This document shows positions 7,907-32,084 of a DNA stretch of 64,000 nt, one piece after another. Each line of letters opens with the position of its first letter. The stretch's first letter is position 1. A program made the translations under genes and the position numbers. The notes beneath the pieces were generated by a model. That model was not told where the DNA came from, did no database searches, and saw nothing but the letters and a program-made list of their open reading frames with translations. Source of the stretch: a plasmid. The stretch is from sequence record NZ_CP118102.1. One strand, given 5' to 3'.

Positions 7907-8293
7907 GTGGGGTGGATAGTAATGTTGAGTATTGGGCTGAATTCAGACGATATCAAAATTGTTAAGGATTATGCTTTATTGCCGATACTACTCGATGTAC
8001 TGGAGAAGGACTGGGAGCTCCTTTGTCGGTCCGATATCAAAACCTTGGAATTGACTCGAGTGATGATTGAACGGTTACAAAATGCGGCAATGAGTGATTT
8101 GACCTCAGCTCGAAAGCTAATGCGAGAAAAGAATTTAAAGGTGTATGAGTATCGTAAGACCAATCATGGCGTTGAATTGCAGTATGTAAGCAAGGGATAC
8201 CATAGAAAGTTGTCTATGCTTTGGGGGCTGATTGAAGCAGAAATTGAGCAACGTTCATACAACTACCTTGGGTTTGAGAGAGAGCAATTATGA
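7907..8293 (+). CDS. Hypothetical protein, first gene of the putative SOS operon
   Basis: ORF. Stop overlaps the polymerase start (ATGA). No recognisable motif. Confidence 0.4.
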   Translation: MGWIVMLSIGLNSDDIKIVKDYALLPILLDVLEKDWELLCRSDIKTLELTRVMIERLQNAAMSDLTSARKLMREKNLKVYEYRKTNHGVELQYVSKGYHRKLSMLWGLIEAEIEQRSYNYLGFEREQL

Positions 8294-9561
8294 AGACGAA
8301 AGAGCGAGTCATTATGTTAGCTGACTGTCAGTCGTTCTATGCCAGTGTTGAAAAGGCAGAGCATCCGGAGTACAAAAATCGGCCGCTCGTTGTAGCCGGT
8401 GATCCTGAAAGACGTTCAGGAATCGTATTGGCTGCTTGTCCCATTGCCAAATCTAAAGGAATAACTACTGCTGAAAGACTAGGGGAGGCACTGGCTAAGT
8501 GTCCGGACCTTGTGGTCGTTAAACCACGCATGCAGCAATATATTGATGTCTCAATGAAAATCACCGAAATCTACAAGTCTTATACTGATTTGGTGGAGCC
8601 GTACAGTATCGATGAACAGTTCTTAGATGTCAGCGGGAGCCTGCACCTATTTGATTGCACACCTGAAGAATTGGCCCGTTTAATACAAAATCATGTCCAA
8701 GAAGCAACAGGAGTGTACACCCGATTTGGAATATCCAATACTAAAATACTTGCAAAGACCGCGTGTGATAATTATGCGAAAAAGAATGCTGCAGGAGTCT
8801 ACACTTTAACCAAAGAGATGCTACCAGAGACGTTATGGAAGCGACCTGTCAGCGACATGTTTATGGTAGGGAGCCGAATGAAACGGCATCTTACAGTAAT
8901 GGGACTTACTACGATCGGAAGTGTCGCTCAAACGCCATTATCCAGGCTTAAGGATATGATGCGTCGTAAGTTCGGAAAAAATTCTGACATTCAGGCAGAG
9001 ATGTACTGGAGAATAGCCAACGGGATCGATGATAGTCCAGTGCGCCCTGGCACTCACCAAGATGCACCTAAATCAGTCGGCCATATGATGACCCTGCCCA
9101 GAGACTACGGAACCATTGATGAAATTAAGGTTGTTCTGCTGGAGTTGACGGAGCTAGTCTGCCAACGCTGCCGTACACTTGGGTTAATGGGGAACGTAGT
9201 GTCAGTAGGATGCTTAGGCGCTGATTTTGACCGGCCTACAGGCTTTTCTAGGCAACTTAAAATGGAAGACCCGACGAATATAACCAATCAAGTTTACCAA
9301 TGGGCCTGCAAGCTGTTAGATCAATTTTGGGATGGCTTCCCGATTCGTAGGGTGGGTATCAGTTTGTCTCAGCTTTCACCTGATAATGAATACCAAGTAT
9401 CCATGTTTGACTCCGGTCGTGAGAAATCTATGGCTCTTGAACGAGTTACTGATGCTCTAAAGCAGAAGTACGGGGATACAGTTGTCATGCGCGCTGTTTC
9501 CAAAACGGCAGCGGGCCAAGCGGTCGACCGATCTGATAAAATAGGAGGTCACTTCAAATGA
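8290..9561 (+). CDS. Y-family (UmuC/DinB/UvrX-like) translesion DNA polymerase
   Basis: N-terminal 'MLADCQSFYASVE' palm motif. Conserved 'DEQFLDVSGS' catalytic region. Length about 420 aa. Confidence 0.85.
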   Translation: MKTKERVIMLADCQSFYASVEKAEHPEYKNRPLVVAGDPERRSGIVLAACPIAKSKGITTAERLGEALAKCPDLVVVKPRMQQYIDVSMKITEIYKSYTDLVEPYSIDEQFLDVSGSLHLFDCTPEELARLIQNHVQEATGVYTRFGISNTKILAKTACDNYAKKNAAGVYTLTKEMLPETLWKRPVSDMFMVGSRMKRHLTVMGLTTIGSVAQTPLSRLKDMMRRKFGKNSDIQAEMYWRIANGIDDSPVRPGTHQDAPKSVGHMMTLPRDYGTIDEIKVVLLELTELVCQRCRTLGLMGNVVSVGCLGADFDRPTGFSRQLKMEDPTNITNQVYQWACKLLDQFWDGFPIRRVGISLSQLSPDNEYQVSMFDSGREKSMALERVTDALKQKYGDTVVMRAVSKTAAGQAVDRSDKIGGHFK

Positions 9562-9899
9562 CAACTCGAAAAAAACTCGAAGGTAACGGATTATGGGAGT
9601 CAAGTCGAATGATGCTCCCGGAGCATAAAGAGGTAATAATACGGCAGCAGGTTGAAGAAAACAAAAAAACAAAACCAATTCTAGATTCCCAAGAGGTAGA
9701 GCTCATCCAACTCGCACTTGCAGAGTCTCTTCATCAACATCGGCGTATAAATTTGCAATTATATGATGAATATAAAGACATACATCTGAGCGGGTTCGTT
9801 GTTTTGATAAATGCTTACAAAAGGGAATTTAAATTTGTCACTAATCGAGATGAATGGCATTGGGTAAGTGTTCAGGACATCGTTTCAGTTAGCTCATAA
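9558..9899 (+). CDS. YolD-like protein (proposed UmuD functional analogue), translationally coupled to the polymerase
   Basis: ATGA overlap with the polymerase stop. 'LWESSRMMLPEH' resembles the W...LPEH motif I recall for the YolD family. The family assignment rests on memory, not a search. Confidence 0.4.
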   Translation: MTTRKKLEGNGLWESSRMMLPEHKEVIIRQQVEENKKTKPILDSQEVELIQLALAESLHQHRRINLQLYDEYKDIHLSGFVVLINAYKREFKFVTNRDEWHWVSVQDIVSVSS

Positions 9900-9918
9900 T
9901 CTAATGAGAATTTTTTTA

Positions 9919-9955
9919 AAGATTGCTAAATAACTAACTAGCAATCTTTTTTATT
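9919..9955 (+). terminator. Rho-independent terminator
   Basis: agattgcta ... tagcaatct stem followed by TTTTTT. Confidence 0.6.
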
Positions 9956-10059
9956 TTTTATGCATATCTTTTTCATCCACTCAATAATGTTGTAGGAGTA
10001 TAATATCGTTTTTCTTACTTGTAGTGCTTCTTTCGTTTTTTTAATTGTATTTATTTGTT

Positions 10060-10330
10060 CTCAAAATATGAGATAGGGTCTCTCAACATCTGATCCAAAC
10101 TCTCTCAAATCTTCAGAGAGGGCCTCTCAGTTATTGACTAGCGAATAGGCCTTTCAAAATTTGAAAGGCAGCTTCTCGAAAATTGAGAGGCGAGATTTAT
10201 TAGTTAAACCGCCTCTCAAAAATTGAGAGACGACGCTTTTCAAATTTTTATACCCCGCTACTCAAATTTTGAGAGGCGGCTTCTAAAAATTTGATAGTCG
10301 GCATTTCAGATTTTGAGAAGCGGACAATTA
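10060..10330. repeat. Array of about 9 degenerate 17-21-bp palindromes (consensus CTCTCAAAATTTGAGAG), spaced about 30 bp apart
   Basis: gcctttcaaaatttgaaaggc, cctctcaaaaattgagaga, ctactcaaattttgagagg and similar copies seen directly. Lies just 3' of the replication-initiator gene. Confidence 0.7.
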
Positions 10331-10337
10331 CATAAAA

Positions 10338-10361
10338 AAACAGACCATGAGGTCTGTTTTA
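10338..10361. terminator. Bidirectional Rho-independent terminator
   Basis: cagacc-atga-ggtctg hairpin flanked by an A-run and a T-run. Abuts the stop of the minus-strand replication-initiator gene. Confidence 0.6.
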
Positions 10362-11348
10362 CTAATCTAACTGTACACAATCAAAGTGTATCTCGCTGAT
10401 ATCGCAGGCAAAAGGCAAGACAATTTGTAAAATCGTATCTTTATACCGTTCTCTTAGCCAATCCCTTGTAAAGGGGACTGGAGAGTATACTGTAAGCACT
10501 TGTCCTCGCTTAATAGCAAAAGTATTTTTAAACCAAGTATCGAAAGAAGGACGGGAAAGAGTTGTACTTATTCCACTTAATACTTGATCCCATAACTTTG
10601 TGTCTTCATCGGTACGCTCTTGTTCGAGTAAGCTTATCTTGTTGAGTGTTTCCTTTTCCAATTGCAGCACTGATTTTTCTTTACGTACTACAGTGCCATG
10701 TTTAACAACATCATCATAAATCTCTAAGTAGTCAACGGCTGGGTTCAGGTTGAGAAATTGATCAAAATTCGCAACAATCCCCTGCATGTACTTATCGTGA
10801 TCAAGTTTTAATTCAGTCGGAAGCTGCTCATAGAGCTCCTGGGGCAGGAAAGGGACCTGCTTACGAACCTTATAGAGGGGACTTTCCTCCATATTATTCA
10901 TGTCTGCATTCTGAACATTGAAGACAAGTACGAAACCATATCGCTCAAGAGTGCCTAAAAACTTTTTAATCGTATTCCGACTCTTGTTCATTTTCAAGCT
11001 AATTAGTTTGAGATCTGGCCAGCAGTAATCTTTATCCCCATAGCAGTAGCGTTTCAAATGAGCGTATAGAGCCACACCCTCAGCACCGAGAAAATGACTC
11101 CAATAGTCAAAGATATAATTGCTCAGAATAGTAACGTGACCATCTACATAGGGAATAGGCTGCCCGTGCTTGTCTAAGCTGAACTTACGCACATTATCTT
11201 CTGTAATATAGATTTTCTCTAATTCTTTTTCGGTGTAGATTTGTTCAACACCGTCGACTTTTCTCACTTTAGGTGTCTCTGTACCCGTTGGCCTATACCG
11301 ATAATACATTAACTTATGTTGTGTACCTTTTAGATTCTTGTTGATCAT
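10362..11348 (-). CDS. Putative replication initiator or replisome organiser: winged-helix N-terminal region plus a C-terminal domain resembling DnaA domain I
   Basis: C-terminal 'SFDTWFKNTFAIKRGQVLTVYSPVPFTRDWLRERYKDTILQIV' resembles DnaA_N. RBS AGAGGAG present. Confidence 0.55.
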   Translation of the reverse strand: MINKNLKGTQHKLMYYRYRPTGTETPKVRKVDGVEQIYTEKELEKIYITEDNVRKFSLDKHGQPIPYVDGHVTILSNYIFDYWSHFLGAEGVALYAHLKRYCYGDKDYCWPDLKLISLKMNKSRNTIKKFLGTLERYGFVLVFNVQNADMNNMEESPLYKVRKQVPFLPQELYEQLPTELKLDHDKYMQGIVANFDQFLNLNPAVDYLEIYDDVVKHGTVVRKEKSVLQLEKETLNKISLLEQERTDEDTKLWDQVLSGISTTLSRPSFDTWFKNTFAIKRGQVLTVYSPVPFTRDWLRERYKDTILQIVLPFACDISEIHFDCVQLD

Positions 11349-11761
11349 AAGAATACTCCTCTAACGCCCTATGAACAAAGCAGGTGACCTTCACAGAGTT
11401 TTGAGACTATGCTAAAATAGCCATAATCTAATTAATGTGAATGAAGTCCTTACTTCCTCACATTTACTGTCTTATGCTTGGCGGCCGCGGACAGCAAATG
11501 TTGACTAGAATGAGGGCTTTATTTTTTATGTAACAGTTATTGAATTCATTCTAATATATATATTAATATATTACCTTCAAAGTTCTACATATTTCCACTC
11601 CTTATTTTGTGACAGAAAAAGAAATTAAGAAGAATTGAAAAAAGCTATGTCGCATACTGTTTGTTTATTAATATTGTTTTGTTATTTAAAATGATTAACA
11701 AATTGATTGCTTGTTTACAGGTCTATGAATCTATTGAATTGACGGGCTTTCTAGCACTTTG

Positions 11762-11892
11762 CTGTCACAAGATAAGGAGTTAACAGTCACAACTTGGGGA
11801 GTATAGATGTCACAGTTAGAGGAGTAAAGTATCACATTTGTAGGAGTGAGCCGTCACAATAAAAGGAGTAGAGGTGTCACAATTAGAGGAGT
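11762..11892. repeat. Iteron array, minus orientation (6 copies of TGTCACAnnnnnnnGGAGT)
   Basis: Regularly spaced copies, about 22 bp apart, read directly from the sequence. Confidence 0.75.
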
Positions 11893-11998
11893 AGATATAG
11901 TAAAACTTCACCCAATTCGTTACCGATTATATATATACGAATGATTTCTTCTCTGATCTTGGTCTAGGTTGTTTCAAAGTGATACTGATATAAAATTT

Positions 11999-12435
11999 AC
12001 TCCTTTTATTGTGACAGTAAGGGTTGATTACTCCTAATTTTGTGACACTTGTGATTGGATACTCCCTACACTGTGACAGCTAGGAAATGATAATTATGAA
12101 AACAACTCCTTTATTTGTGACAGACAAAGGCCGATTCCTGCAAATTTGATGGCATACGTAAAGAAAGTCACCAGGTAATGTGTTTTACTCCTAAGTTTGT
12201 GACAGAAAGTAAATACTACTCCTTAAAATGTGATAGTTTGCTTTATTTACTCCTTTATTTGTGACAGCTAAGCGTATATGATTCAAAAAACTCCTCGTTA
12301 TGTGACAGAAAACTAGAAAGAGACTCCTCATTATGTGATAATTACGTTCTAGAAAGCATAAAAGCACTCTATTATAAGAAAGAAAATTCAACTCTTTAGC
12401 AATGTTCGGTTAAAAAACTCCTCTTTTTGTGACAG
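11999..12435. repeat. Iteron array, plus orientation (10 copies, consensus ACTCCTTTATTTGTGACAG), ending at the Rep_3 gene promoter/RBS
   Basis: Direct repeats seen. An AT-rich 100-bp spacer (11893-11998) separates the two opposed arrays. Probable theta-replication origin. Confidence 0.75.
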
Positions 12436-12542
12436 AAGTTCAGTTACTGAAGGAAGTTATTTACTTTTATCTGTCACATATAAAGGAGTGGAAAATCAGT
12501 AACCGGTTATTTATAGTAATTTTAAAGGGAGGGTTAAGAGAA

Positions 12543-13778
12543 ATGAAAGCAGAGCAGTTAGAATTCGACCTAGAACCAACATCTATTTCACCCGAGTACA
12601 TCGTTACGAAATCAAATGCATTGATCGAAATGCCTCTTAACCTGGACCTGCAGGAATCACGAGTAATCTATACACTTATATCCTTGATTCAACCAGACGA
12701 TGAGGATTTTAAAACTCATTTTGTTAAAGTGAAAGAATTTGCTGATATTCTAGATCTGCAGGAAAAGAACTTCTATAAGAAAATAAGAGAAGTTGTAACT
12801 GGGCTGCAGCGAAAAACACTCGTTATCCGTGAAAATAATGGGGAATCAGAGCTAGTGGTAAACTGGCTTTCCGCGTCTCGTTATCACCATCGGAAAGGTG
12901 TAGTTGAATTAGAGTTCTCGCCTCAGTTGAAGCCTTACCTACTGAAGCTTAAGAAGGACTTTACCCGATATAAATTAGCTAACGTTCTGGTCCTTAGAAG
13001 TAAATACTCGATTCGGATGTATGAACTGCTGAAACGTTATCTCAATTTTGGAAAGAGAAGGTTCACACTTGAGCAGCTTCGTAACTTACTCGAGATTGAA
13101 CCAGGCAAATTAACGCATTATGGACACCTAAAGCAGCGGGTACTTTTAAAAACACAAGAGGAGCTGGCTGAGAAGACCGATATTTCTTTTGATTTTGAGG
13201 AGACAAAAGTCGGACATAAGGTAGTCGCAATTACTTGTTACATAAAACAAAATCACCGTAAAAAGTTGCTGCAAAAGGATCCTGATTTATTTGAAGAAGG
13301 TGTCACAGCGATATCTTTATTGACTCGCTTCGGTGTAAGAAAGTCTGTTGCTGAAGACTTACTTAAAACATTTGGCGAAAAGAGAGTCAAAGCCAATATT
13401 CAGTATGTTTATGAGACTAAACAAGAGGCGAGCATTGACAATATAAGCGGTTATATGGTTAAAGCAATCCGGGAGGATTTTGTGAATAACGGAGCAGGAT
13501 ATGAGGAGGAAGATCTTTATGATTTTGAGACATCGATTCCTCATTTGAATGCCCGCTTGCGCCGGCTGATTGAAAATCATCAGGAAAAGATGGATCAGGC
13601 GAAAAAGTCTGAAGAGAAAAAAATGCGTAGTGACATGACTCAAGCGGTTGTTGATGAAATTCACAGAACACTTGAAATACGCAGGAGCCGAAATCTTCGG
13701 CCACTTGATCCGGAGGATTTTGAGCAGAAGTATGTACGAGAGCTGTATGAATACTTATTGGAGCACCCCTATGTATGA
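12543..13778 (+). CDS. Rep_3-family (RepB-like, iteron-binding) plasmid replication initiator
   Basis: 'SKYSIRMYELLKRYLNFGKRRFTLEQLRNLLEIEP...HLKQRVLLKTQEEL' is the Rep_3 signature. RBS AAAGGGAGGG. The upstream in-frame extension from 12429 covers the iterons and is rejected as the start. Confidence 0.75.
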   Translation: MKAEQLEFDLEPTSISPEYIVTKSNALIEMPLNLDLQESRVIYTLISLIQPDDEDFKTHFVKVKEFADILDLQEKNFYKKIREVVTGLQRKTLVIRENNGESELVVNWLSASRYHHRKGVVELEFSPQLKPYLLKLKKDFTRYKLANVLVLRSKYSIRMYELLKRYLNFGKRRFTLEQLRNLLEIEPGKLTHYGHLKQRVLLKTQEELAEKTDISFDFEETKVGHKVVAITCYIKQNHRKKLLQKDPDLFEEGVTAISLLTRFGVRKSVAEDLLKTFGEKRVKANIQYVYETKQEASIDNISGYMVKAIREDFVNNGAGYEEEDLYDFETSIPHLNARLRRLIENHQEKMDQAKKSEEKKMRSDMTQAVVDEIHRTLEIRRSRNLRPLDPEDFEQKYVRELYEYLLEHPYV

Positions 13779-14881
13779 TTGGGGTGCTTTTTCTTTCGAT
13801 TATTGCTTACAAAACCATGGATATCATTGATAATCTTGTCCTTAGCCTTGAGCCAAAGCTGAAGAGTGTTCCTTTCGTATCCATTGTCTTCGCAGTACTG
13901 TCTAAATTCCTTTTCTATCACAAATTGAGGAGTCACACTGGTAATATTCCTGAAGGGATCCAGGAAGCCACGAATCAGCAGGTATTCTTCAGGTCTCAGT
14001 CCGTTTATTACTTGTCCAAAGTTTTCAGTCTCAATAAGTTTTGATAAATACGGCACCGGCTGCCGGATTGATCCAATTCGAGTTTGAACATAATCAAGTG
14101 CAACAATAAAAGCATATTCTCCTTTTTGCAGCCACTTGGAATAGAGGTCCGGAGTAAGCTTGGCATCAATGAACTTTGTGAAAAGCTTGGCTTGATCCAA
14201 AAAGTAGTCCTGGTTGATATCCAGGTGAGCATGCGAGATGGAACGGGATAGTTGGATTTGCAAACTATTTATTCGATTTCCTGATTTTTGCTCGATGAAA
14301 TTTATCGACAAGCCAAGGAGAGATTTAATTTCTTCAGAAGCTGGCACCAGTATCCTTGCTTTAAAGTTAGCATAGCGTGGGTATTGATCATGTACATCTA
14401 ACATCTCTCTTAATTCTTCGATAGTAACAATATCACCGTTCCACACGCTGTCACGAACAAGAGTATACAATTTGATAGTAAAAGTACTTTTGGCTTTCAG
14501 CAGTAAGTTTATTTCATCGGTATTAAACATTTTGGCGAGTCTAAGAAACAGAATTTCTATGGCAGCATGCATCTTGAAGCTAATTACTTGGGATCTGCTA
14601 GGAATCTCGATATTTTCAATCAACCTTTTCTCGAATTCTAGAGACCGCTCTTGCACTAAGATTTCGGTTTCGGCCAGTTGGATAAAAGTCGATTTTAACT
14701 CTGTATATTTAATATTTTTATGGTTCATTCTCTCAGATAAATCGGAAAGTCTGATGACATATTGATGCAATGGAGAAATGTTCCAACGAATCAAGTCTGT
14801 AAGCCAAAGTAGAATCTTGATTTCAGTGAGGGTAAGTTTCTTTAATCGATTATTTGAGAACTTTTCAAAAAACATATACAT
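13769..14881 (-). CDS. Second Rep_3-family replication initiator, convergent with the first
   Basis: 'FTIKLYTLVRDSVWNGDIVTIEELREMLDVHDQYPRYANFKARILVPASEEI' matches the Rep_3 core. SD GAGGTGG before the ATG at 14881. Confidence 0.6.
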   Translation of the reverse strand: MYMFFEKFSNNRLKKLTLTEIKILLWLTDLIRWNISPLHQYVIRLSDLSERMNHKNIKYTELKSTFIQLAETEILVQERSLEFEKRLIENIEIPSRSQVISFKMHAAIEILFLRLAKMFNTDEINLLLKAKSTFTIKLYTLVRDSVWNGDIVTIEELREMLDVHDQYPRYANFKARILVPASEEIKSLLGLSINFIEQKSGNRINSLQIQLSRSISHAHLDINQDYFLDQAKLFTKFIDAKLTPDLYSKWLQKGEYAFIVALDYVQTRIGSIRQPVPYLSKLIETENFGQVINGLRPEEYLLIRGFLDPFRNITSVTPQFVIEKEFRQYCEDNGYERNTLQLWLKAKDKIINDIHGFVSNNRKKKHPNHT

Positions 14882-15174
14882 ATTCACCACCTCACTGGCT
14901 ATTATATCTAAACCTCAAACATTTTGATACTCGACCAGTAACTACATATTTGCGTCTTCCTGCCATAAATCTATGTAATATCCAGAAACTAATAAATGGT
15001 ATATTTTATGTATTGATAAATGTTATGTATATGTATTAATATTCTACTGCTTGCCATATATTACTCACTGAGTAATATGTTTCATAGTAAATTATATTTA
15101 ATAAAGGTTATGAATTAGCACAACATAAACACGATAAATATGGTAGGAAAAGATAAGTTTGGAGGTTTTTAAGA

Positions 15175-15549
15175 ATGAATAAAAAAGAGTTTGAGGCTGT
15201 AATTAATTTACCATCAAATGTTCGATACGAATATTTTATAAAAAAAGTAGCTGATTATGAAGAAGTATGGGGGCTGTATGATAACGGATGGGCTGTAACA
15301 TCAGACCCAAACGGGAATTTATTACTTCCTTTCTGGCCTAAGAAAGAATTTGCAGAGGCATGTGCAATTGAGGATTGGAAGAATTATAAAGCTGAATCTA
15401 TTGATCTAAGTGGATTTATTGAAGAATTCTTGCCACAATTAAAAGAAGATGGTATCAAACCTTCTATTTTCTTTAATAATGATGATTCAGCCGTGCTGGA
15501 AGTTAACACTTTGATCGAGGATATTGAGACTGAATTAGAAAAATATTAA
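15175..15549 (+). CDS. Hypothetical protein (DUF2750-like)
   Basis: ORF with a good RBS. Family assignment from memory only. Confidence 0.35.
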   Translation: MNKKEFEAVINLPSNVRYEYFIKKVADYEEVWGLYDNGWAVTSDPNGNLLLPFWPKKEFAEACAIEDWKNYKAESIDLSGFIEEFLPQLKEDGIKPSIFFNNDDSAVLEVNTLIEDIETELEKY

Positions 15550-15567
15550 TCTAGATGAGTAACACAA

Positions 15568-15599
15568 GTCACCGATCAAATAATGATCGGTGACTTTTT
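15568..15599 (+). terminator. Rho-independent terminator
   Basis: gtcaccgatc-aaataat-gatcggtgac hairpin followed by TTTTT. Confidence 0.7.
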
Positions 15600-15876
15600 A
15601 TAATTACAAACATATAAATATCTTTTTTCTATTGATATTAAATGCTATAATCTAACCAACAGATATGTATTACATTAATTTTCTCTGCTGTCTTACATTT
15701 CGGTGGAGTGGGAGTAGCTGTATTAATGGCAAATAGATAGTTGGATTGCTGGTGCATGCGGTATAAGTATGTACTTTTTTTGCGTCCATTTTTGTGAGCT
15801 CATCGATAGATGAGCTCTTTTTTTATGCCCATAGGAGATTAAAAACAACAGGTTTCATAAAGAAAGGGGTTAATTC

Positions 15877-17127
15877 ATGAGATTACGTAGAACTAGACAT
15901 GCTGATTGGTTTGAGATTATGTCGCTGTGCCCGATCTGTGGAAAGAAAGGGTGGTGTGCGATCAATAAGGATCAGACCATTGTTCATTGCATGCGAGTAC
16001 CATCGGATAAATACAAAGATTCAGATATTGGTCGGCAATATACACATTATTTAACGGAGAGTGCACCGCGGGAGCGAATTGAAATTGAGCTATCCAATGC
16101 GGTAGAGAAGCGATCAAATGACCATCTGAATCATGTATACCGTACCTTTACTAAAGAAGTCCCTCTGTCTACAAAGCACGCAAGTCACTTACGTAGCGAC
16201 CGAATGATGGACGAGGACTCAATACGAATGAGAGAATATCGGACAATGCCAGAAAGGGACCGTTATAAAGTCGCTAAAGGGATGATAGGGCGATTAAGCA
16301 GCGAAAATGACTTACTAGGTGTTCCAGGATTTTTTGCAGCTGAGGGTCGCTATGGAGCATACTGGACGATAGCTGGGAATACGGGTCTAATGGTTCCGTA
16401 TCGATCAATCCGTAATGAAATCACTGGCTGGCAAATTCGTGTAGATAAACCACCGCTCGAGTTGTCGATGCAGGGTTCTATAAAAGGTGAAATTATGGAG
16501 GAGGTTGAGCCACTTCCTAATGGCTTGAGACGAGCTAAATGCTCACTCCAAGTCCAGGATAAAACACTTGAAGTAATTCTTACTGAAAAGGATAAGAAGA
16601 TATGTCATTCCAAGTCCGGTCAGTTTGTCTTCAGTGTAAAACTTGAGCAGGGTACCAAGTACTGGTGGTGGAGCAGCGGATCTAAAATGAATGGTGCTTC
16701 TATAGGGGGGCCACTGCCGGTTCATTTGGCTCTTCCTTATCCATGTCTCCCATATTGGAAAACAGGGGAGGATCCCAGCGATATTATCGACTGTTCAGAG
16801 GTATGGGTGACAGAGGGAGCACTAAAAGCAGATCTTGCAGCTGATCTAATGGTAAAGCCGTTCTTCGCCGTTCCTGGAACGGGAGCTTTTAGATTAGCCC
16901 TTGAACCATTAAAGGAGCTCGGCTGCAAACATGTCGTTTTAGCCTTTGACGCCGACGCAGTTACAACTCCTGAAGTACAACGTTCTCTAGAGCTATGCGC
17001 AGAGTTTTTTGCAAAAGAAAGCGATATGGCACTAAGCCTTGCAATGTGGGACGTTTCATTAGGAAAGGGAATTGATGATCTACTGCGGGCAAATTATGTT
17101 CCTCAGGTGTCTTCTTTATTGAGTTAA
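15877..17127 (+). CDS. Primase-like protein: N-terminal zinc ribbon plus C-terminal TOPRIM domain
   Basis: 'CPICGKKGWCA...HC' zinc finger. 'VWVTEGALKADL...VLAFDADA' matches the TOPRIM E...DxD pattern. Confidence 0.55.
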   Translation: MRLRRTRHADWFEIMSLCPICGKKGWCAINKDQTIVHCMRVPSDKYKDSDIGRQYTHYLTESAPRERIEIELSNAVEKRSNDHLNHVYRTFTKEVPLSTKHASHLRSDRMMDEDSIRMREYRTMPERDRYKVAKGMIGRLSSENDLLGVPGFFAAEGRYGAYWTIAGNTGLMVPYRSIRNEITGWQIRVDKPPLELSMQGSIKGEIMEEVEPLPNGLRRAKCSLQVQDKTLEVILTEKDKKICHSKSGQFVFSVKLEQGTKYWWWSSGSKMNGASIGGPLPVHLALPYPCLPYWKTGEDPSDIIDCSEVWVTEGALKADLAADLMVKPFFAVPGTGAFRLALEPLKELGCKHVVLAFDADAVTTPEVQRSLELCAEFFAKESDMALSLAMWDVSLGKGIDDLLRANYVPQVSSLLS

Positions 17128-21540: not shown

Positions 21541-21562
21541 AAAAACTGGGAGGAATTTAGAA

Positions 21563-22729
21563 ATGGCAAAAGCAGTGGAAGAACGTGTTACTACGGCAGT
21601 TAAGGCAGAGGGAGTATCGTTTACCGTTGATCATGAAGCGATTATGAACGTATTAACGACTTGTTCTAAGGTAGTGCCGAGAAGCAGCGTTGTTCCAATA
21701 CTGAAATGTATTAAGTTTGATTTAAACAAAGATGTTCTTTTCGTTACGGCAATGTCCGATTCCCAATCGGTTATTGTGAAACTGCAGGTAGAGAATACAG
21801 GAAATCAGGATGGGAGCTATCTATTTCCTTCAAGAGAAGGAATAGAACTTGTAAAACGTTTGCCAAGCGGTTCGCTATCGTTCAGTGTAAATGAGGCCTC
21901 TGTACGTATCTCGTACGGGAACAATGGTTCTGCATCGCTTAAGGTCTTGGATCCGGACGAGTATCCTCAGCTGCCGTCAGTGGCCGGAGTAAAGTTTGTG
22001 CCGGTTCCAATGGATGCCCTGCGAAAGGGTGCTGCAGCCCAGCGTTTTGCCTCAACTGATTCCAGTACTGCTATTCTCTGCGGTATTAATATCCGCAAAG
22101 TAGAGGATAAGCTTGGATTTACCGCGACGAATAGGCATCGGATATATGATTTCGTTTCTGACGTAAAGATACCAAATCCAGACGAGTTTCGTGGTGGAGT
22201 TATCGATGCTATAAATTTCAAAAGTATCGTAGATACTTTTAGAACCTCTGAAAGAATTGATTTTGCAGTGACGGATCATCATTTAATTTTAAGAGACCGT
22301 AGCAGCAATTCAGTGTACTTTGGTAGGCTAGTTGAGGGAAGTTATCCTGATATTGCGAAACTCTGTGAGATGCCTGAGCAGTCCTGTCTTGCAAGGATTC
22401 CGCTTGGGCGCCTCGACGAGACGTTGAACCGGATGTTATCGCTAGAATCCGAAAATCATCGTGTATATTTTTTACATGGAGATAACGGAGAGCTGGTTGT
22501 TAAATCGGAAAGCCACACAGGTGAGATTGTAGAGTCAATTGAAGGCTCCGTTGTAGATAAAAGTATGGGAATGATCAGGTTCAATGCTCGATATCTGAGG
22601 GATGCCCTTTCAGCCAGTGACCGGGATGTGAACGATGTTTTATTTAACATTACAGGTCAGAGTACTCCATCATATATTACGTATGATGGAGATCCATCGG
22701 TATTGAACGTTGTATTACCCGTGAGGTAA
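21563..22729 (+). CDS. dnaN-like: DnaN-like DNA polymerase III beta sliding-clamp homologue
   Basis: About 390 aa. N-terminal 'VSFTVDHEAIMNVLTTCSKVVPRSSVVPILKCIKFD' and 'LDPDEYPQLP' match the DnaN domain I-II pattern. RBS GGGAGG. Confidence 0.65.
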   Translation: MAKAVEERVTTAVKAEGVSFTVDHEAIMNVLTTCSKVVPRSSVVPILKCIKFDLNKDVLFVTAMSDSQSVIVKLQVENTGNQDGSYLFPSREGIELVKRLPSGSLSFSVNEASVRISYGNNGSASLKVLDPDEYPQLPSVAGVKFVPVPMDALRKGAAAQRFASTDSSTAILCGINIRKVEDKLGFTATNRHRIYDFVSDVKIPNPDEFRGGVIDAINFKSIVDTFRTSERIDFAVTDHHLILRDRSSNSVYFGRLVEGSYPDIAKLCEMPEQSCLARIPLGRLDETLNRMLSLESENHRVYFLHGDNGELVVKSESHTGEIVESIEGSVVDKSMGMIRFNARYLRDALSASDRDVNDVLFNITGQSTPSYITYDGDPSVLNVVLPVR

Positions 22730-22757
22730 TAAATATCAAGATAAAAGAGAGCTGCGC

Positions 22758-24516: not shown

Positions 24517-26777
24517 GTGAATCTTCAGAAATAAGCAATGTGGTGATTGAGGCAATTGACCCTGCTCTGGAAGAGAAAAAGGTTTCCTCTCTTTCCGATG
24601 TGGAATCTATTGGGGATTATTTAGGGTTATTTGGAGCAGACCTGATTAGACGTCTTAACGATGAATATGTACCAGTTCATCATCCAGGTCAAAATAAACC
24701 ACTCCAGTTGTTAGAGAACCTTAAGCGTCCATTATTTCAAGCACAAGCTCACGTCGTAACTGCATTAATTAAGGGGTTTCAGCGTCATCGTAATCTCTTA
24801 GTTATTGGTGAGCCTGGAACAGGGAAAACATCCGTCTCTATCTCAGTTTTTTATTCCCTAATCACAGAATTACTCCAGAAAAAATCTGGACGGGTTCTTT
24901 ATATGGTCCCAAATCATCTGATAAAGAAGACGAAGCGGGAATGGGGTATTCTGCTAGATAAGGATCTGTTTGAGGTTCACTTTCTATCAGACTATATTGA
25001 CGTTATCAAGCTCCGAGATAGCAGAAGATTGGAGACGAAACCTAAAAAAATTGAGGTTTACATCATTGCAAGGGATACTGCTAAACTAGGTTATATTTAC
25101 GAACCGGTTGCACATTGGTCGGACCGTACATATCAGCAGCAGTTTCAAAACAATGATGGGACAGTTCGAACTGTTGAAAAGGTTGCTTTTCGCGGATGGA
25201 GATGCCCCGATTGTGGTGGACAATTAATGAAAGAGAAAGAGGACAGTCTTGTACCGATGGAGTATGAGGACTTTTTTAATAAGCATGGAAAGCCTACGCG
25301 TAGAAAAACGAACTTGTACTGTTCTAATCAAGTACGCCTCTATAAAAATGTAGATCCCGACAAGGACGAGACCCGTATTTGTGGGTCAAGACTTTGGCAG
25401 GCGAAGAATTCGAAAAAATCATATATATCTGGTAAGCCGAAACCGGTTGCTGGGGTGGCGCCACGAAAAGTATCTCCTGCGGATTTGTTTAAGCGTTGGT
25501 TTAAAGGCAAATTTGACCTGGCCATCGGTGACGAATGCCATGAGTTAGCAGGAGGGAGCGCTCAAGCTCATGCTTTTCATGTATTTTTGAATTGTGCCAA
25601 ACGAGGGATCGCAATGACCGGAACTTTGTCCAATGGTTATGCTTCTTCCTTATTCGAATTGTTTTTCCGGATGTTTCCCTCTCGTCTGAAGCAGATGGGC
25701 TTTAATTGGGGAGACGTAGGAAAGTGGGTCGATTTGTACGGTGTACGGGAAAGGGTCACTAAAATACGTGATGACGGAGATTTGAACAGCTCTAGTAACG
25801 GGAAGTCGAAAAGGACAAGTGTTAAGGAGTTGCCGGCTGCCGCACCGCAGCTCTTCACGGACATACTCAGTGACGTTGCAGTTTTTATACAGATGGCTGA
25901 TATGTTCGAAGTCCTGCCGGAACTCAAAGAAGGACCGATGAGTGTTCCTCTTGAGGGTGAAAGAAGACTTATAAGCTGCAAAACCCAAATTGTTCGACGA
26001 CCAGGTAGAAAGAGAAAGATTGAAAAGAAAATGAGGTTACTTGCGCCGGATTGGTATCTCAGAAAAAATCTGACTGAAGTCGAAAATCGTCTGCGAGAAG
26101 CTGTGCAAAAAGAGCTCGCTGCAGGTGGCCAGTCGGTACTTCTAGGGAGCCTTGTGAATACACTTTTGAGTTATTCAGATGTCCCTTTCAATTTCGAAGG
26201 TGTCCTTCATCCGGATACAGGAGAATGCATAGTGTCGGATAGTTACCGGCTTAGTGAGCGCCTATTATATCCTAAGGAGCTTCAGATGATCAAGTTTGTC
26301 CGATCGCAGCTAAAGCTCGGGCGAAGGGTAGGCATTTATGCGACTTATACGGGGAAAATGGGTACTCTGCAGCGACTCTCTCAGTTACTTGAAGAAAGAG
26401 GGATAAAGACAGCCCTACTTGGAACAGAGGTAAAGGGACCAGATCGAGAAGAGTGGATTGCCGAAAGGGTAAGGGAAGGTGCTCAGGTAATACTGACGAA
26501 TCCAATCCTGGTCAGCACTGGCCTTGATTTATTGATGTTTCCTTCACTTTATTTCTATCAGACTGGGCACCGTCTGAATATTGTGCGGCAGGCATCAAGA
26601 CGGCATTGGCGGATAGGTCAGCCGAATAAATGTCTTACTGTTTACAACTCATATCAGGGGACAATGCAGGAGCTGGCCATTAATCTTATGGCAGCCAAAA
26701 TGAGCGCTGCCCAAGCCTTAGAAGGGGTACCGCCAACAAAACGCGGAAAACGTACGCTAAGCCCATTAATTGAGTAA
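24513..26777 (+). CDS. SNF2-family helicase, 3' end interrupted by the transposon (last 17 codons are read from the transposon inverted repeat)
   Basis: GEPGTGKT (motif I), DECHE (motif II), MTGTLSNGYASSLFELF (SNF2 motif III), QASRRHWRIGQ (motif VI). Internal CxxC...C zinc ribbon. The native reading frame continues at 33881. Confidence 0.7.
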   Translation: MSESSEISNVVIEAIDPALEEKKVSSLSDVESIGDYLGLFGADLIRRLNDEYVPVHHPGQNKPLQLLENLKRPLFQAQAHVVTALIKGFQRHRNLLVIGEPGTGKTSVSISVFYSLITELLQKKSGRVLYMVPNHLIKKTKREWGILLDKDLFEVHFLSDYIDVIKLRDSRRLETKPKKIEVYIIARDTAKLGYIYEPVAHWSDRTYQQQFQNNDGTVRTVEKVAFRGWRCPDCGGQLMKEKEDSLVPMEYEDFFNKHGKPTRRKTNLYCSNQVRLYKNVDPDKDETRICGSRLWQAKNSKKSYISGKPKPVAGVAPRKVSPADLFKRWFKGKFDLAIGDECHELAGGSAQAHAFHVFLNCAKRGIAMTGTLSNGYASSLFELFFRMFPSRLKQMGFNWGDVGKWVDLYGVRERVTKIRDDGDLNSSSNGKSKRTSVKELPAAAPQLFTDILSDVAVFIQMADMFEVLPELKEGPMSVPLEGERRLISCKTQIVRRPGRKRKIEKKMRLLAPDWYLRKNLTEVENRLREAVQKELAAGGQSVLLGSLVNTLLSYSDVPFNFEGVLHPDTGECIVSDSYRLSERLLYPKELQMIKFVRSQLKLGRRVGIYATYTGKMGTLQRLSQLLEERGIKTALLGTEVKGPDREEWIAERVREGAQVILTNPILVSTGLDLLMFPSLYFYQTGHRLNIVRQASRRHWRIGQPNKCLTVYNSYQGTMQELAINLMAAKMSAAQALEGVPPTKRGKRTLSPLIE
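26724..26761. repeat. Tn3-family terminal inverted repeat, left copy (GGGGTACCGCCAACAAAACGCGGAAAACGTACGCTAAG)
   Basis: Perfect 38-bp reverse complement of 33838-33875. Flanked by TAGAA. Confidence 0.9.
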
Positions 26778-26839
26778 TAAGCCGGTTTTCCCCGTACGCT
26801 AAAGGGGTACCGGCTCCGAAATTCGCAACGTGTTAATTG

Positions 26840-29797
26840 TCAGTAGAGAGGTTTCTTTAATGGCCGTAACGACGTTAGAGTTGTTGCTTGTTTTAGATCA
26901 AACTTGTACTCCCCTAGAAAATTAATATGTTCCCATCCTAGAGGTGAGGTATGTTGCATTAGTTCTTCTTTAAACGTTCCTTGGGTCTTTTTATATTCTG
27001 TTGCATGAGACAAATAGACAGTATTCCATACGCTGATTGCATTAATCAAAATGTTCAAGGCGCTGGCTCGTTGGAGTTGATCTTGCAGTGCGCGCTCCCG
27101 TAACTCCCCGTGTTTACCGAAGAAAATCGCTCTGGCCAGTGCGTTCATAGCCTCACCTTTATTCAGCCCCCTATGAATCTTCCGGCGCAGGGCTTCGCTT
27201 GATATGTAATCCAGAATAAAGATTGTCTTTTCAATGCGCCCCATTTCACGTAGAGCGGTTGCTAAGCGATTCTGCCGCGAGTAGGAACCGATCTTCCCCA
27301 TGATAAGTGATGCAGATACTGTCCCTTCTCGAATAGAATGGGCTAGCCGCAGCACATCATCATAATTTTCCTGAATGACCTTCGTATTGATTTGACCACG
27401 CAGCAGTTTCTCCAGTTTTGGGAAATCAGTAGGCTTCCCGATGATGTAAAGCTTAGAATCAGAAAGATCTCGTAAGCGCGGCGCAAATCTGAATCCGAGT
27501 AGTTGAGTCAAACCAAAAACTTGATCTGTATATCCTGCAGTGTCCGTATAATGTTCTTCGATGGTCAAGTCAGTTTCATGATGAAGTAGTCCATCGATCA
27601 CATGAACAGCATCCCTAGCATTCGTGTTAATCACTTTAGAATAGAAGCTTGAAAATTGATCACTGACAAAACGATAAATGGTTGCGCCCTTGCCAGTTCC
27701 GTAGTGCGGATTAGCATCCGCATGAAGCGCAGCTACGCCAATCGGCACCCTCATTCCGTCTGACGAAGACGTGGTGCCATCGCCCCAATAGGAGGGCAAA
27801 GATAACTTGTGGTGGAAGTTGACGAGGACAGCTTGAGCTTTATTCATTGCATCCTCATATAGCCGCCATTGTGCCGTATTGGCCATTTGCCGGTATGAAA
27901 TATCCGGCGTGGCATCCCCCATCTTGGTCAATCCAATGTTCGTTCCCATCGCCATCAGTGTTGCCATGAGAATTAACGTTTCTTCTTCATTGGGAATCCG
28001 ATTTGTTGAAGCATGGATAAATTGTTCATGAAAACCAGTCCAATGCGCTACCTCCATTAAGACCTCAGTCAATTTAATACGTGGAAGTAGTTCGTACAAG
28101 GATGAGCTAAAATTTCTGGCATCCTCCGGAGTATCTTTCTCTAGGCGGCTAATGTGAAGTTTTCCTTGCTCAAAGTTAATACCTTCTAGATCCTCAATGT
28201 TATTCGAAACCCATTCTAAGCGCTGTATCAGAGATGCGGTACGTTCGGCTAGGTAATCGCTCGCAGTCATGCTAACTACCAATTTTGTTTCATCAGGCTG
28301 AATACGGCTCCATTCATCTTTGGAGACAAGATACTCATCAAAATCTTTATGCTGCCGGCTCCCGACAATGGACACATCACCGGAGCGAACATAATTACGC
28401 AGCTCAGTTATTACAGCCATTTCGTAATAATGACGGTTAATCGTTCCGTCATCATCGTAGACATGCTTTTGCCAACGATTTGTTACAAAATTTAAGGGTG
28501 CGTCTTTTGGTACTTTACGTTTACCAGTTTCATTAATGTCCCTTATAACATCAATAGCCTTCATAAGTGGCTCTGCGGATTTATTAGAACGGAATTCCAA
28601 CGTTTTCAGCAGTGTTGGTGTATATTTGCGCAGCGTGTAAAACTTCTTCTCCAGCAAATCCAAATAGTCGTAATCAATGGGACGGGCCAGTCGCTTTGCT
28701 TCCTCTACAGATGCGACGAGCTGATCCCAGGGCATTACCGTCTCCAACGCAATAAATGGGTCTATGCCTTCGTCCCTAGCTTTTATGAGTGCTGCGCCAA
28801 GATCAGCATAATGAACCACCTTTTCGTTAATCGATTTTCCATTTTGTTTTTGGATTTCTTCTTGAGCCTTACGGCCTTTGGAATGTAGCTGTAATATCTG
28901 ACGGTCGTGAATTTCAAATGCTTGATCCGTTAAATCTTGTGTTAGATCGAGTAAATAAGCAACTAAAGTAGCATATTTCTTGGGGTCATCGAAACGACGG
29001 AAGGACTGCGGTTCATACCTTGCCCCGATTTTGGAGAGCTGACGTAATCGGTTTGGATGAATTCCCTTTGTATCGATTTGAAGCTGGACTTTTCGTATAT
29101 ATTCAAGTTTTTCAATGATCTTAAGGAAAGCATCCGGGGAACAGGTGCCTGGTACTTCTCTTAGCCATGCCAGATACGTTTTGTTGCTCTCCGGCATTGG
29201 GGATAGGATGTTTTCAAGTTTATCGACCTGCTCCACTGATAAGGAAGAAATAAGCATTTTATATATTTTCTCCTCGGCCCGTTGCCTCACTTCCCACACA
29301 ACCCGTTCGATTGTAGTCATCCCAGGTATAATGATTTTCTGTTTTCGTAATTCATCAAGGGCTACACGGATTAAATACATGGAGTTACCATTTTCTAACG
29401 AAAAATTCAGCATGATATTGGATAAGAACCGATATTCACGAAGCGTGAAGTTCCGATACCCATAGGTTTGCCGAATCTCCTCCATATGTTCTCGTCTAGT
29501 CGGTTCCCGTTGGGCATAAAGGGGAAATACATCAGGTGCCACGCCAACCTGCTTGGCAATGTAGCTTATTACAGAATCCGGTATGTGTTTCAAATCAGAT
29601 AAAGACCATCCTGGATAACGCAGGATGGCCAATTGAACGGCAAAGCCTAATCGGTTATGATCACGGCGATGTTTATTGATGATATCGAGATCGTGTTGCG
29701 AAAATGTATAGTACGTACCTAAATCCCAATCGTCGTCTGAAGGGATTTGCATAAATTCTGCGCGCTGATCTAATGTTAATAATTCCTTTCCTCTCAA
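26840..29797 (-). CDS. tnpA: Tn3-family DDE transposase
   Basis: 985 aa. N-terminal 'DWDLGTYYTFSQHDLDIINKHRRDHNRLGFAVQLAILRYPGW' is typical of Tn3-family TnpA. Confidence 0.9.
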   Translation of the reverse strand: MRGKELLTLDQRAEFMQIPSDDDWDLGTYYTFSQHDLDIINKHRRDHNRLGFAVQLAILRYPGWSLSDLKHIPDSVISYIAKQVGVAPDVFPLYAQREPTRREHMEEIRQTYGYRNFTLREYRFLSNIMLNFSLENGNSMYLIRVALDELRKQKIIIPGMTTIERVVWEVRQRAEEKIYKMLISSLSVEQVDKLENILSPMPESNKTYLAWLREVPGTCSPDAFLKIIEKLEYIRKVQLQIDTKGIHPNRLRQLSKIGARYEPQSFRRFDDPKKYATLVAYLLDLTQDLTDQAFEIHDRQILQLHSKGRKAQEEIQKQNGKSINEKVVHYADLGAALIKARDEGIDPFIALETVMPWDQLVASVEEAKRLARPIDYDYLDLLEKKFYTLRKYTPTLLKTLEFRSNKSAEPLMKAIDVIRDINETGKRKVPKDAPLNFVTNRWQKHVYDDDGTINRHYYEMAVITELRNYVRSGDVSIVGSRQHKDFDEYLVSKDEWSRIQPDETKLVVSMTASDYLAERTASLIQRLEWVSNNIEDLEGINFEQGKLHISRLEKDTPEDARNFSSSLYELLPRIKLTEVLMEVAHWTGFHEQFIHASTNRIPNEEETLILMATLMAMGTNIGLTKMGDATPDISYRQMANTAQWRLYEDAMNKAQAVLVNFHHKLSLPSYWGDGTTSSSDGMRVPIGVAALHADANPHYGTGKGATIYRFVSDQFSSFYSKVINTNARDAVHVIDGLLHHETDLTIEEHYTDTAGYTDQVFGLTQLLGFRFAPRLRDLSDSKLYIIGKPTDFPKLEKLLRGQINTKVIQENYDDVLRLAHSIREGTVSASLIMGKIGSYSRQNRLATALREMGRIEKTIFILDYISSEALRRKIHRGLNKGEAMNALARAIFFGKHGELRERALQDQLQRASALNILINAISVWNTVYLSHATEYKKTQGTFKEELMQHTSPLGWEHINFLGEYKFDLKQATTLTSLRPLKKPLY

Positions 29798-29846
29798 TGG
29801 TTACACACCTTTCACTAAAATCAGAAGTTCAGTCAATAGGAGATGT

Positions 29847-30428
29847 TCAGGTCACCTGAAGGCTTTGTGTAGTCTTATTCCGGTTTGTAAGTGTTTGATA
29901 GATTTTTGCTTTAGATACACCGGTTCGTTCTGTTATTTCCTTAATGGTGTACTTTTCACTATCGTAAAGTGTAAGAGCCATGTCAATTTTGTTTTTATCC
30001 ATTGGAGGACGACCGCCTTTCCTGCCTCTCGCACGTGCAGCCTGTAATCCAGCAATGGTTCGCTCTCGGATTGTCTCTGCTTCCATCTCCGCCAGTCCAG
30101 CCATGATAGCAAAGAAAAGTTTCCCAGCGGGCGTACTCGTATCAACACCAAGAGTAATGATCTGCAGTCCAATCCCTATTTCCTGAAGGCCATGCGATAA
30201 TTCGATTAGTTGCCGCGTGGTTCTTCCCAAACGATCCAGCTTCCAAATGACAAGCGTATCACCTGGTCTCAAATATTCTAGGCAACGGGTCAGCTCCACT
30301 CGATCACTTTTCTTCCCAGAAGCCTTCTCCTCAAATATTCGCTCGCAGCCAGCAGCTTTTAACGTGTCGATCTGTAGGTTCAGTGATTGATCAGCTGTCG
30401 AGACACGAGCATAACCAATTTTGGCCAC
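29847..30428 (-). CDS. tnpR: Serine recombinase (resolvase) with a C-terminal HTH
   Basis: 'GYARVSTADQ' catalytic-serine motif. About 190 aa. Confidence 0.9.
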   Translation of the reverse strand: MAKIGYARVSTADQSLNLQIDTLKAAGCERIFEEKASGKKSDRVELTRCLEYLRPGDTLVIWKLDRLGRTTRQLIELSHGLQEIGIGLQIITLGVDTSTPAGKLFFAIMAGLAEMEAETIRERTIAGLQAARARGRKGGRPPMDKNKIDMALTLYDSEKYTIKEITERTGVSKAKIYQTLTNRNKTTQSLQVT

Positions 30429-30690: not shown

Positions 30691-30693
30691 TCC

Positions 30694-30725: not shown

Positions 30726-30744
30726 TTATTTAGAGGTGATGAAA

Positions 30745-31418: not shown

Positions 31419-31423
31419 GGTGA

Positions 31424-32081: not shown

Positions 32082-32084
32082 AAA

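Follow-up and report, generated by a model that had tools for sequence, protein, structure and literature searches.

Which initiator starts replication, and from which origin, on a plasmid in which three initiator-like genes lie side by side? The question is raised by a segment of plasmid record NZ_CP118102.1, of which a continuous stretch of 64,000 nucleotides (nt) was analyzed (hereafter the window, to which all coordinates refer unless another record is named). Within it, a minus-strand gene related to the initiator gene that plasmid pBS72 from Bacillus subtilis carries is followed by two convergent genes of the Rep_3 initiator family, here called rep3A and repB. We consider it probable that two complete theta-type iteron replicons, unrelated to each other, lie back to back in the locus, accompanied by one accessory paralog. 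This reading draws on protein homologies, two repeat arrays, the pairing of each repeat family with its gene, synteny and selection on the genes, all of which are observed directly. The three genes are:

10362..11348, minus strand: pBS72-type initiator gene, 328 amino acids (aa), identified by Pfam, homology and predicted structure
12543..13778, plus strand: rep3A, Rep_3 initiator gene, 411 aa, with winged-helix domains 1 and 2 (WH1 and WH2) and a C-terminal extension of ~180 aa
13769..14881, minus strand: repB, divergent Rep_3 paralog, 370 aa from the ATG at 14881, convergent with rep3A, the two sharing an overlap of 10 nt

An open reading frame (ORF) check returned the three genes at the coordinates given in a preliminary description of the DNA, including the overlap of the two convergent Rep_3 genes at their 3′ ends (13769-13778). 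The rep3A ORF lies within a longer, GTG-started ORF from 12429, and repB has alternative starts at 14875 (RefSeq) and at a GTG at 14890 (longest ORF). RefSeq names the products "DnaA N-terminal domain-containing protein" and, for the other two, "replication initiation protein". A hidden Markov model (HMM) scan of the three proteins, the check proposed with the preliminary description, gave Pfam matches that all exceeded the gathering cut-offs, and NCBIfam agreed. It bore out the likeness of the C-terminus of the minus-strand gene product to DnaA domain I and the Rep_3 membership of the other two genes, each of which encodes a Rep3_N and a Rep3_C domain. In Rep3A these domains score 141.1 bits (E 4e-41; cut-off 22.4) and 54.1 bits (E 2e-14; cut-off 21.1), respectively, and the protein matches the PDB entries 1HKQ (pPS10 RepA WH1, 3e-10), 1REP (RepE, 2e-8) and 2NRA (pi). 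It is 32-37% identical to the Rep proteins of Priestia megaterium and pBM19, and 47% identical to its homolog from Paenibacillus polymyxa pSb31l.

The segment from 10.0 to 15.2 kb is 100% identical to part of Paenibacillus urinalis plasmid unnamed2 (NZ_CP118110.1, 190 kb, from a blood isolate), on which the rep region lies at 81-85 kb and an annotation check found no further initiator anywhere on the 190-kb plasmid. The sibling plasmid NZ_CP118105.1 is likewise 100% identical over this segment, plasmids of Paenibacillus sp. Cedars and P. lautus have ~75% DNA identity to it, and a search of phage sequences gave no match. The nested three-gene arrangement is conserved in at least six Paenibacillaceae lineages (the window and the fetched loci L017, L018, L002, L003 and L008).

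The minus-strand gene encodes a full-length homolog of pBS72 RepA (NZ_KX711616.1, B. subtilis; 36% identity over 99% of the query, E 9e-67 in tblastn), whose gene stands first in the pBS72 record. The same search against plasmids returned 48 records from Bacillaceae and Paenibacillaceae, and phrog_26369, a "replication initiation protein" family, also matches (E 2e-63). The protein comprises an HTH_36 domain (E 6.5e-7) and, at residues 251-309, a DnaA_N domain (E 2.3e-11; 43.7 bits against a cut-off of 24.6), an architecture common to ~70 family clusters. A homolog is the only Bacillus-derived replication gene found in the expression vector pHT01, and another is the only initiator gene in the 9 kb examined of the 21-kb B. 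licheniformis plasmid pCR3. Two other assignments were set aside: membership of the RepA_N family (pSK41, pAD1 and pLS32 type), as there was no RepA_N Pfam match and the iterons lie outside the gene, and a whole DnaA, as only positions 1-71 of the 437 in TIGR00362 match, with 23 bits against a cut-off of 344. Neither the AAA+ nor the Bac_DnaA_C Pfam domain was found in the protein.

An AlphaFold2 model of the pBS72-type protein, built from 32 family members (mean predicted local distance difference test score, pLDDT, 83), consists of an N-terminal β-hairpin, a winged helix that spans residues ~77-161 (HTH_36) and, over residues ~247-324, a C-terminal DnaA domain I. The C-terminal domain superposes on the DnaA domain I structure 4TPS with a Foldseek template modeling (TM) score of 0.80-0.82, a root-mean-square deviation of 1.4-1.6 Å and 39% identity; the sequence match to 4TPS has an E-value of 3e-11. 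The winged helix weakly resembles the N-domains of RepA_N proteins (4PQL, 4PT7 and 5KBJ, E 0.03-0.1) and DnaD (2V79). In B. subtilis DnaA, the substitutions T26A, W27A and F49A are lethal, abolish the interaction with DnaD and prevent its recruitment to oriC (PMC10201431). By alignment, these residues correspond to T271, W272 and F293 of the pBS72-type protein, and W272 is invariant across the family alignment. No DnaA box with one mismatch or fewer was found in either origin of the locus, and the window-wide count equals chance. Because the three residues are conserved and neither origin has a DnaA box, the most economical mechanism would be that DnaA is bypassed by a plasmid initiator that attaches to its own iterons and offers DnaD a surface like that of DnaA. 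The winged helix would bind the repeats, and the C-terminal domain would recruit host DnaD and then the DnaB and DnaI/DnaC helicase-loading pathway, so that this replicon would need neither host DnaA nor DnaA boxes.

The cognate origin of the pBS72-type gene, origin 1, appears to lie just beyond its 3′ end, with these features:

10056..10323, no strand assigned: origin 1 iterons, ~11 units, each of 22 bp, with two longer gaps (27 and 40)
10337..10360, minus strand: terminator-like hairpin directly after the pBS72-type stop codon, a 10-pair stem followed by a T run
9990..10058, no strand assigned: AT-rich stretch at the far end of the array, 72-78% AT, defined by composition only

The array starts 40 bp past the stop codon, after the hairpin, and had been overlooked when the gene was first flagged as an adaptor. 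Each unit has a palindromic core, TCTCAAAAWTTGAGAG, followed by GCG or GCC; the core can also be written TCTCAAAAWTTGAGAGGCG. The core pattern has 18 matches in the window against 3.15 expected, and 13 of the 18 fall inside 10056-10323. The same layout of gene and then array is present in pBS72, pCR3, pG9842_140, the P. sonchi and P. rhizovicinus plasmids and Thermobacillus pTHECO01 (an equivalent downstream array was scored in loci L008, L009, L010, L011, L012 and L004, the last being pBS72). The outer bases of the palindrome shift with the protein clade of the initiator, to CTCTCAAATTTTGAGAG in the P. sonchi plasmid, CCTATCAAAATTTGATACCC in B. cereus pG9842_140 and CCCTAATTAAATTTTAA in B. 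licheniformis pCR3, and the array is conserved across lineages in which synonymous sites are saturated. The stretch at 9990-10058 is a candidate unwinding element. A DNA polymerase IV (UmuC-like) and YolD-like gene pair at 8290-9899 adjoins this origin; the pair also flanks the module in the Cedars plasmid, and in the P. lautus plasmid a YolD gene does.

The second repeat family, ACTCC-N7-GTGAYA, has 19 matches in the window when one mismatch is allowed, against 1.16 expected, and none of 100 shuffled sequences reached 19. Its copies and the adjoining sequence are:

11597..11614, plus strand: lone outlying Rep_3 iteron bounding the AT-rich element
11620..11745, no strand assigned: conserved AT-rich element, 75-88% AT, with repeated TGTTT motifs, on the outer side of the six-copy block
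11763..11892, minus strand: six Rep_3 iterons spaced 22-23 bp, in the orientation opposite to rep3A
11999..12434, plus strand: ten Rep_3 iterons at spacings of 31/31/44/82/31/31/41/33/94 bp
12472..12489, minus strand: inverted iteron located 54 nt ahead of the rep3A start and paired, in opposite orientation, with 12417-12434
13916..13933, minus strand: iteron-like site ACTCCTCAATTTGTGATA in the 3′ end of repB, 147 nt before the stop codon

The six inverted and ten direct copies agree exactly with the preliminary count, which did not include the sites at 11597, 12472 and 13916. That description had treated the repeats as a single bipartite origin flanking a 100-bp AT-rich spacer. The assignment to Rep_3 is supported, but the locus holds two origins, the 22-bp array having been missed; the spacer is present between the blocks (11893-11998), but it is only 65-75% AT compared with ~62% locally, and the element at 11620-11745 is both richer in AT and better conserved than any other stretch here. 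A GC-rich inverted repeat (CTGTC...GGCGGCCGC...GACAG) stands at 11460-11500, in an otherwise AT-rich region, within the 250-bp gap between the start of the pBS72-type gene and the first Rep_3 iteron.

The ACTCC iterons lie between two divergent initiator genes, and their position alone does not decide to which gene they belong. In P. polymyxa pSb31l, the Rep3A locus has six inverted copies spaced by 22 bp, three direct ones and, before the gene, a further inverted copy, all of the form ACTCC-N7-GTGGC, while the pBS72-type locus, 76 kb away, carries no ACTCC iterons. All six loci of the window clade have GTGAC as the right half-site, and all four loci of the other clade have GTGGC; together these make up the ten Rep3A loci. 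Because the array follows rep3A in P. polymyxa and the half-site covaries with the Rep3A clade, sequence comparison assigns the ACTCC-N7-GTGAC iterons to Rep3A, which would bind them as a WH1-WH2 monomer.

Exactly six inverted copies at 22-23 bp are found in five of the six window-clade loci and in P. polymyxa L006; at a tolerance of one mismatch, L018 has five. The tight run of L012, L020 and L021 is oriented the same way as rep3A. The spaced copies vary by lineage, from 3 to 15 in that orientation, with the tight 22-23 bp run kept. The site at 11597 recurs in the same position and orientation in L002, L003, L017, L018 and L008, the proximal inverted copy precedes rep3A in all ten Rep3A loci examined, and conserved blocks of the AT-rich element at 11620-11745 persist in the comparison with Thermobacillus despite the saturation of synonymous sites. 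The six tightly spaced copies at 11763-11892 are probably the core origin and, beside the AT-rich element, the best candidate for its unwinding element, would form origin 2 proper. By analogy with F incC and P1 incA, which are second, looser iteron sets, the ten spaced copies at 11999-12434 are probably a copy-number control array that would titrate or handcuff Rep3A. Likewise, with the operators of RepE and pPS10 RepA (2Z9O) as the model, the inverted copy and pair at 12417/12472 is probably the autorepression operator of rep3A.

How the two replicons came to adjoin is suggested by synteny, which was assessed by tblastn of four proteins, those of the three rep genes and of one further gene, against all fetched loci. 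The fourth gene is:

15877..17127, plus strand: toprim/DUF3854 gene, 416 aa, matching Pfam DUF3854 and named "toprim domain-containing protein" by RefSeq

Its product has a Cys-rich N-terminus (CPICGKKGWC...HC) and is 52-98% identical across 11 loci; no PHROG or NCBIfam family matched it, and our guess is that it may be the plasmid primase of the pBS72-type replicon. In six loci without an adjacent Rep_3 gene (L007, L009, L012 and L019-L021, from P. polymyxa, P. sonchi, P. rhizovicinus and three draft genomes), the toprim and pBS72-type genes are divergent neighbors. In the window, P. provencensis, P. rubinfantis, P. lautus and Paenibacillus sp. Cedars, the iterons, rep3A and repB sit between the two. 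In Thermobacillus the three rep genes are arranged as in the window, and no toprim homolog was found within the 10 kb fetched. Because the toprim and pBS72-type genes are adjacent wherever no Rep_3 gene adjoins, the comparison suggests that a Rep_3 cassette (iterons, rep3A and repB) was inserted between them, although the direction of this event is read from the present-day arrangements. The multi-replicon or cointegrate ancestry raised in the preliminary description is thereby supported, with two initiator families each having its own iteron origin.

Both families also occur alone. The pBS72-type gene is present without a nearby Rep_3 gene in pCR3, pHT01 and the P. sonchi plasmid, and Rep_3-type genes without a pBS72-type gene were found in Alkalihalophilus, Sutcliffiella and many Priestia plasmids. 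In the other Rep3A clade, the Rep3A gene is 7-9 kb, 29 kb (P. peoriae) or 76 kb (P. polymyxa) from the pBS72-type gene. The separate occurrence of the two families is why we regard them as autonomous replicons that often share a backbone.

The third gene, repB, is of a different standing. Its product matches Rep3_N (E 1.5e-7, 32.3 bits against 22.4) and Rep3_C (E 5.6e-14, 52.6 bits against 21.1) and is 23% identical to Rep3A (E 4e-10). A PDB sequence search with RepB gave no match. In its AlphaFold2 model (pLDDT 81), residues 1-213 match RepE54 with a Foldseek probability of 1.0 and a target-normalized TM-score of ~0.63, forming the complete WH1-WH2 fold of iteron-bound RepE54 followed by a helical C-terminal region, and the family-wide WH2 residues Y170, K174 and R176 are invariant in the alignment. 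RepB orthologs form six clusters among 5.8 billion proteins, all from Paenibacillus, beyond which there is a gap down to ~25% identity, where Rep_3 proteins of B. cereus-group plasmids annotated as initiators are found; tblastn identified a further ortholog on a Thermobacillus plasmid. The gene was found only convergent with rep3A and is absent beside more distant Rep3A homologs. The identities of the pBS72-type, Rep3A and RepB proteins to those of the window are 82, 92 and 65% in P. lautus, and 59, 71 and 36.5% in Thermobacillus, and at the protein level RepB evolves 3-4 times faster than Rep3A. The ratio of nonsynonymous to synonymous substitution rates (dN/dS) of repB in the closest pair, 0.22, indicates purifying selection.

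Repeat searches in three lineages and an upstream comparison of five found no RepB-specific iterons around repB, in agreement with the preliminary description, which had seen none. A 23-bp tandem repeat of 2.2 copies at 14990-15041 was rejected as a RepB iteron array, as it is not conserved in other lineages. Upstream, one element besides the ribosome-binding site (RBS) is conserved in five lineages:

14901..14906, minus strand: repB -10 box, TATAAT

RepB is thus a Rep_3-fold protein without the iterons of its own that would mark it as an initiator, and its role is most likely to modulate replicon 2 rather than to initiate alone, a view that we hold with low confidence. It would do so by acting on the shared iterons, by forming heterodimers, or by transcription that converges into rep3A. 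The iteron-like site at 13916 has an equivalent at the same distance from the stop codon in Thermobacillus (L008 1080-1096) and in L002 and L003 (7945/7947, one mismatch; 7945-7962 in L002). It encodes a conserved T-P-x-F-V-I peptide, and protein constraint may partly explain its conservation; either Rep3A uses the sequence for regulation close to where the two genes converge, or it merely follows from the peptide.

Several observations weigh against two autonomous replicons with an accessory paralog. That both origins fire is a prediction from sequence comparison. P. polymyxa pSb31l has no array downstream of its pBS72-type gene and is an exception to the gene-plus-array rule. The cumulative GC skew of NZ_CP118110.1, with a minimum at 33 kb and a maximum at 136 kb, tracks gene orientation and not the rep region. 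The presence of RepB goes with larger iteron arrays (18-28 copies versus 10-12), a comparison of two clades only. A pBS72-type gene is also present on eight of the nine PLSDB plasmids whose Rep3A homolog has 45% identity or more; because this co-residence exceeds independence, some functional coupling of the two replicons is conceivable, although the co-occurrence statistics are small and phylogenetically non-independent (a contig scan with a single protein gave six loci).

It is rather unlikely that the nesting is itself functional, with RepB as a trans-acting controller or the DnaA-domain-I module shared by both origins. In the first version, RepB, derived from a duplicated or captured Rep_3 initiator, would set copy number or arbitrate between the origins, acting on the Rep3A iterons, including the 13916 site, or by convergent transcription. 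In the second, the pBS72-type protein would recruit DnaD for both origins. Either would amount to a coordinated dual-initiator origin conserved across Paenibacillaceae megaplasmids.

We also think it unlikely that one replicon alone is active in this host, with the other a silent backup, a host-range extension or an incompatibility remnant of cointegration. Multi-replicon plasmids often use one replicon at a time. Of the three genes, rep3A is the most conserved (dN/dS 0.014 in the closest pair), and in NZ_CP118105.1 (148742-149726; L023 1501-2490) an extra A in an A5 run causes a +1 frameshift that cuts the pBS72-type protein to 247 aa and deletes DnaA domain I, the gene being otherwise identical and the plasmid still maintained. 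As a natural knockout of replicon 1 this allele was rejected: a single homopolymer A is indistinguishable from a sequencing error. For the bifidobacterial megaplasmid pMP7017, only one of two putative replicases is reported to be the initiator (PMC8313286). In the locus studied here, however, both initiator genes are under clear purifying selection (dN/dS 0.076 for the closest pair of pBS72-type genes), and both arrays are conserved across lineages with saturated synonymous sites.

The preliminary description had offered, as an alternative to a multi-replicon ancestry, a division of labor in which Rep3A would be the sole initiator and the HTH-DnaA_N protein an adaptor acting in trans to bring the helicase-loading machinery to the Rep_3 origin. 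The two genes do flank the Rep_3 iterons divergently, that origin has no DnaA boxes, the pBS72-type protein keeps a DnaD-binding surface predicted to be intact, and the two gene types co-reside on the eight plasmids mentioned above and lie no more than 10 kb apart in L012, L020 and L021. We nevertheless find the adaptor quite improbable: the gene is a full-length homolog of a stand-alone initiator and has its own 22-bp array in the position typical of the family; pHT01 shows no Bacillus-derived replication gene other than a homolog, and the examined part of pCR3 likewise shows no other initiator; the distance between the two genes is 76 kb in P. polymyxa and 29 kb in P. peoriae; Rep_3 relatives are present in Alkalihalophilus and Sutcliffiella, where no pBS72-type gene was found; and the P. 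sonchi plasmid has a pBS72-type gene without a close Rep3A homolog. That RepB is a third independent initiator, with an origin elsewhere or too degenerate to recognize, is very improbable despite its intact modeled fold, its invariant WH2 residues, the selection on its gene and the initiator annotation of its next relatives, given that no repeat family is found upstream of, downstream of or inside repB in five lineages, that the gene never occurs without a convergent rep3A, and that the protein evolves faster than Rep3A.

Two replicons with an accessory paralog can be set beside systems already known. On this reading, iteron replicons of two familiar kinds are nested in the locus together with an orphan Rep_3 paralog, and the plasmid is of the ordinary multi-replicon type. 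The pBS72 replicon is the basis of the vectors pMTLBS72, pHT01 and pNDH33. RepA and the iteron origin reportedly suffice for pBS72, which is said to need DnaB, DnaC, DnaD, DnaG and DnaI and not DnaA, and a RepA domain is said to resemble the helicase-interacting domain of DnaA. Replicon 1 shares with pBS72 the full-length initiator homology, the HTH_36 and DnaA_N architecture, and a short array, placed just past the gene, whose units pair a palindromic AT core with a G/C-rich flank. It differs in the iteron itself (TCTCAAAAWTTGAGAGGCG here, GGGATTAAAATTTAATGA in pBS72), in the number of units (~11 versus 3-4 clear copies), in the toprim gene that is linked in the Paenibacillus clade and was not seen beside pBS72 repA, and in the second replicon inserted directly upstream in the window. 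One paper describes pBS72 derivatives as low-copy theta replicons and pNDH33 as "thought to" be DnaA-dependent (PMC5615212). Compared with chromosomal DnaA, the pBS72-type protein has the KH-like domain I fold in its C-terminal 75 residues (39% identity to B. subtilis), but this domain stands at the C-terminus instead of the N-terminus, the AAA+ domain and domain IV are lacking, and DNA binding is presumably by the unrelated winged helix.

Replicon 2 resembles Rep_3 replicons such as those of RepE, pi and pPS10 RepA in the WH1 and WH2 domains of Rep3A, in iterons of ~19-22 bp at two-helical-turn spacing beside an AT-rich element, in an inverted copy that precedes the rep gene, as the repE and repA operators do, and in a second, looser iteron set like F incC or P1 incA. 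Its nearest kin are the ~400-aa initiators of large Bacillaceae plasmids (Priestia megaterium, B. methanolicus pBM19). Unlike in those Rep_3 replicons, both iteron sets are upstream of rep3A and opposite to each other in orientation, DnaA boxes are lacking, Rep3A has the ~180-aa C-terminal extension, and a convergent paralog overlaps the 3′ end of the initiator gene. With multi-replicon plasmids (IncF FIA/FIB/FII, the bi-replicon Rep_3 plasmids of Acinetobacter, pMP7017) the locus shares the presence of more than one initiator gene and a cointegrate or insertional origin, but here unrelated replicon families are nested within 4 kb. A search of a limited collection of papers found no description of a pairing of pBS72-type and Rep_3 replicons.

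Further checks concerned regulation and the wider plasmid. Rfam gave no credible match to antisense or copy-control RNAs in 9500-16000. A promoter scan did no better than shuffled sequence (20 sites versus 17.4 expected), and because it equals chance we make no promoter claim other than the conserved repB -10 box. GC skew was rejected as a locator of the active origin, as its minimum on NZ_CP118110.1 coincides with TubZ partition and relaxase-accessory genes and not with an initiator; a TubZ-type partition GTPase is encoded there at 30944-32600. NZ_CP118110.1 also encodes a DNA polymerase III beta clamp, several helicases and a second TOPRIM protein, and the gene at 92162-93328 (window ~21560-22730) is listed among its replication-related genes, a set that is unusually rich for a plasmid. 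A distant paralog of the pBS72-type initiator (31% identity) is present at 124575-125462 of a third P. urinalis plasmid, NZ_CP118109.1 (215 kb), and because of it the pBS72-type family seems to have diversified into variants able to coexist in one species.

Collinearity of the window with NZ_CP118110.1 is restricted to 1-26725 and 33873-44494. The 7.1-kb segment at 26726-33872 is missing from the otherwise 99.98%-identical plasmid, reflecting an insertion or deletion between close plasmid variants. The window beyond 44494 has no counterpart there, GC content jumps sharply from 33-45% to 53-64% at ~45-46 kb, and 44500-64000 could represent an island of foreign DNA or another variant of the plasmid.

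The two-replicon reading provides a testable replication map for the 150-250 kb megaplasmids of Paenibacillaceae, including those of clinical P. urinalis blood isolates. It also defines two candidate minimal replicons from which compatible vector backbones might be built for Paenibacillus, for which genetic tools are scarce. RepB would be a natural case of a Rep_3 paralog that has lost, or never had, an origin of its own and yet has been kept by selection. The pBS72 RepA family, with its DnaD-recruiting residues intact, is extended to dozens of plasmids with recognizable cognate origins, and would be useful for studying DnaA-independent helicase loading in Firmicutes.

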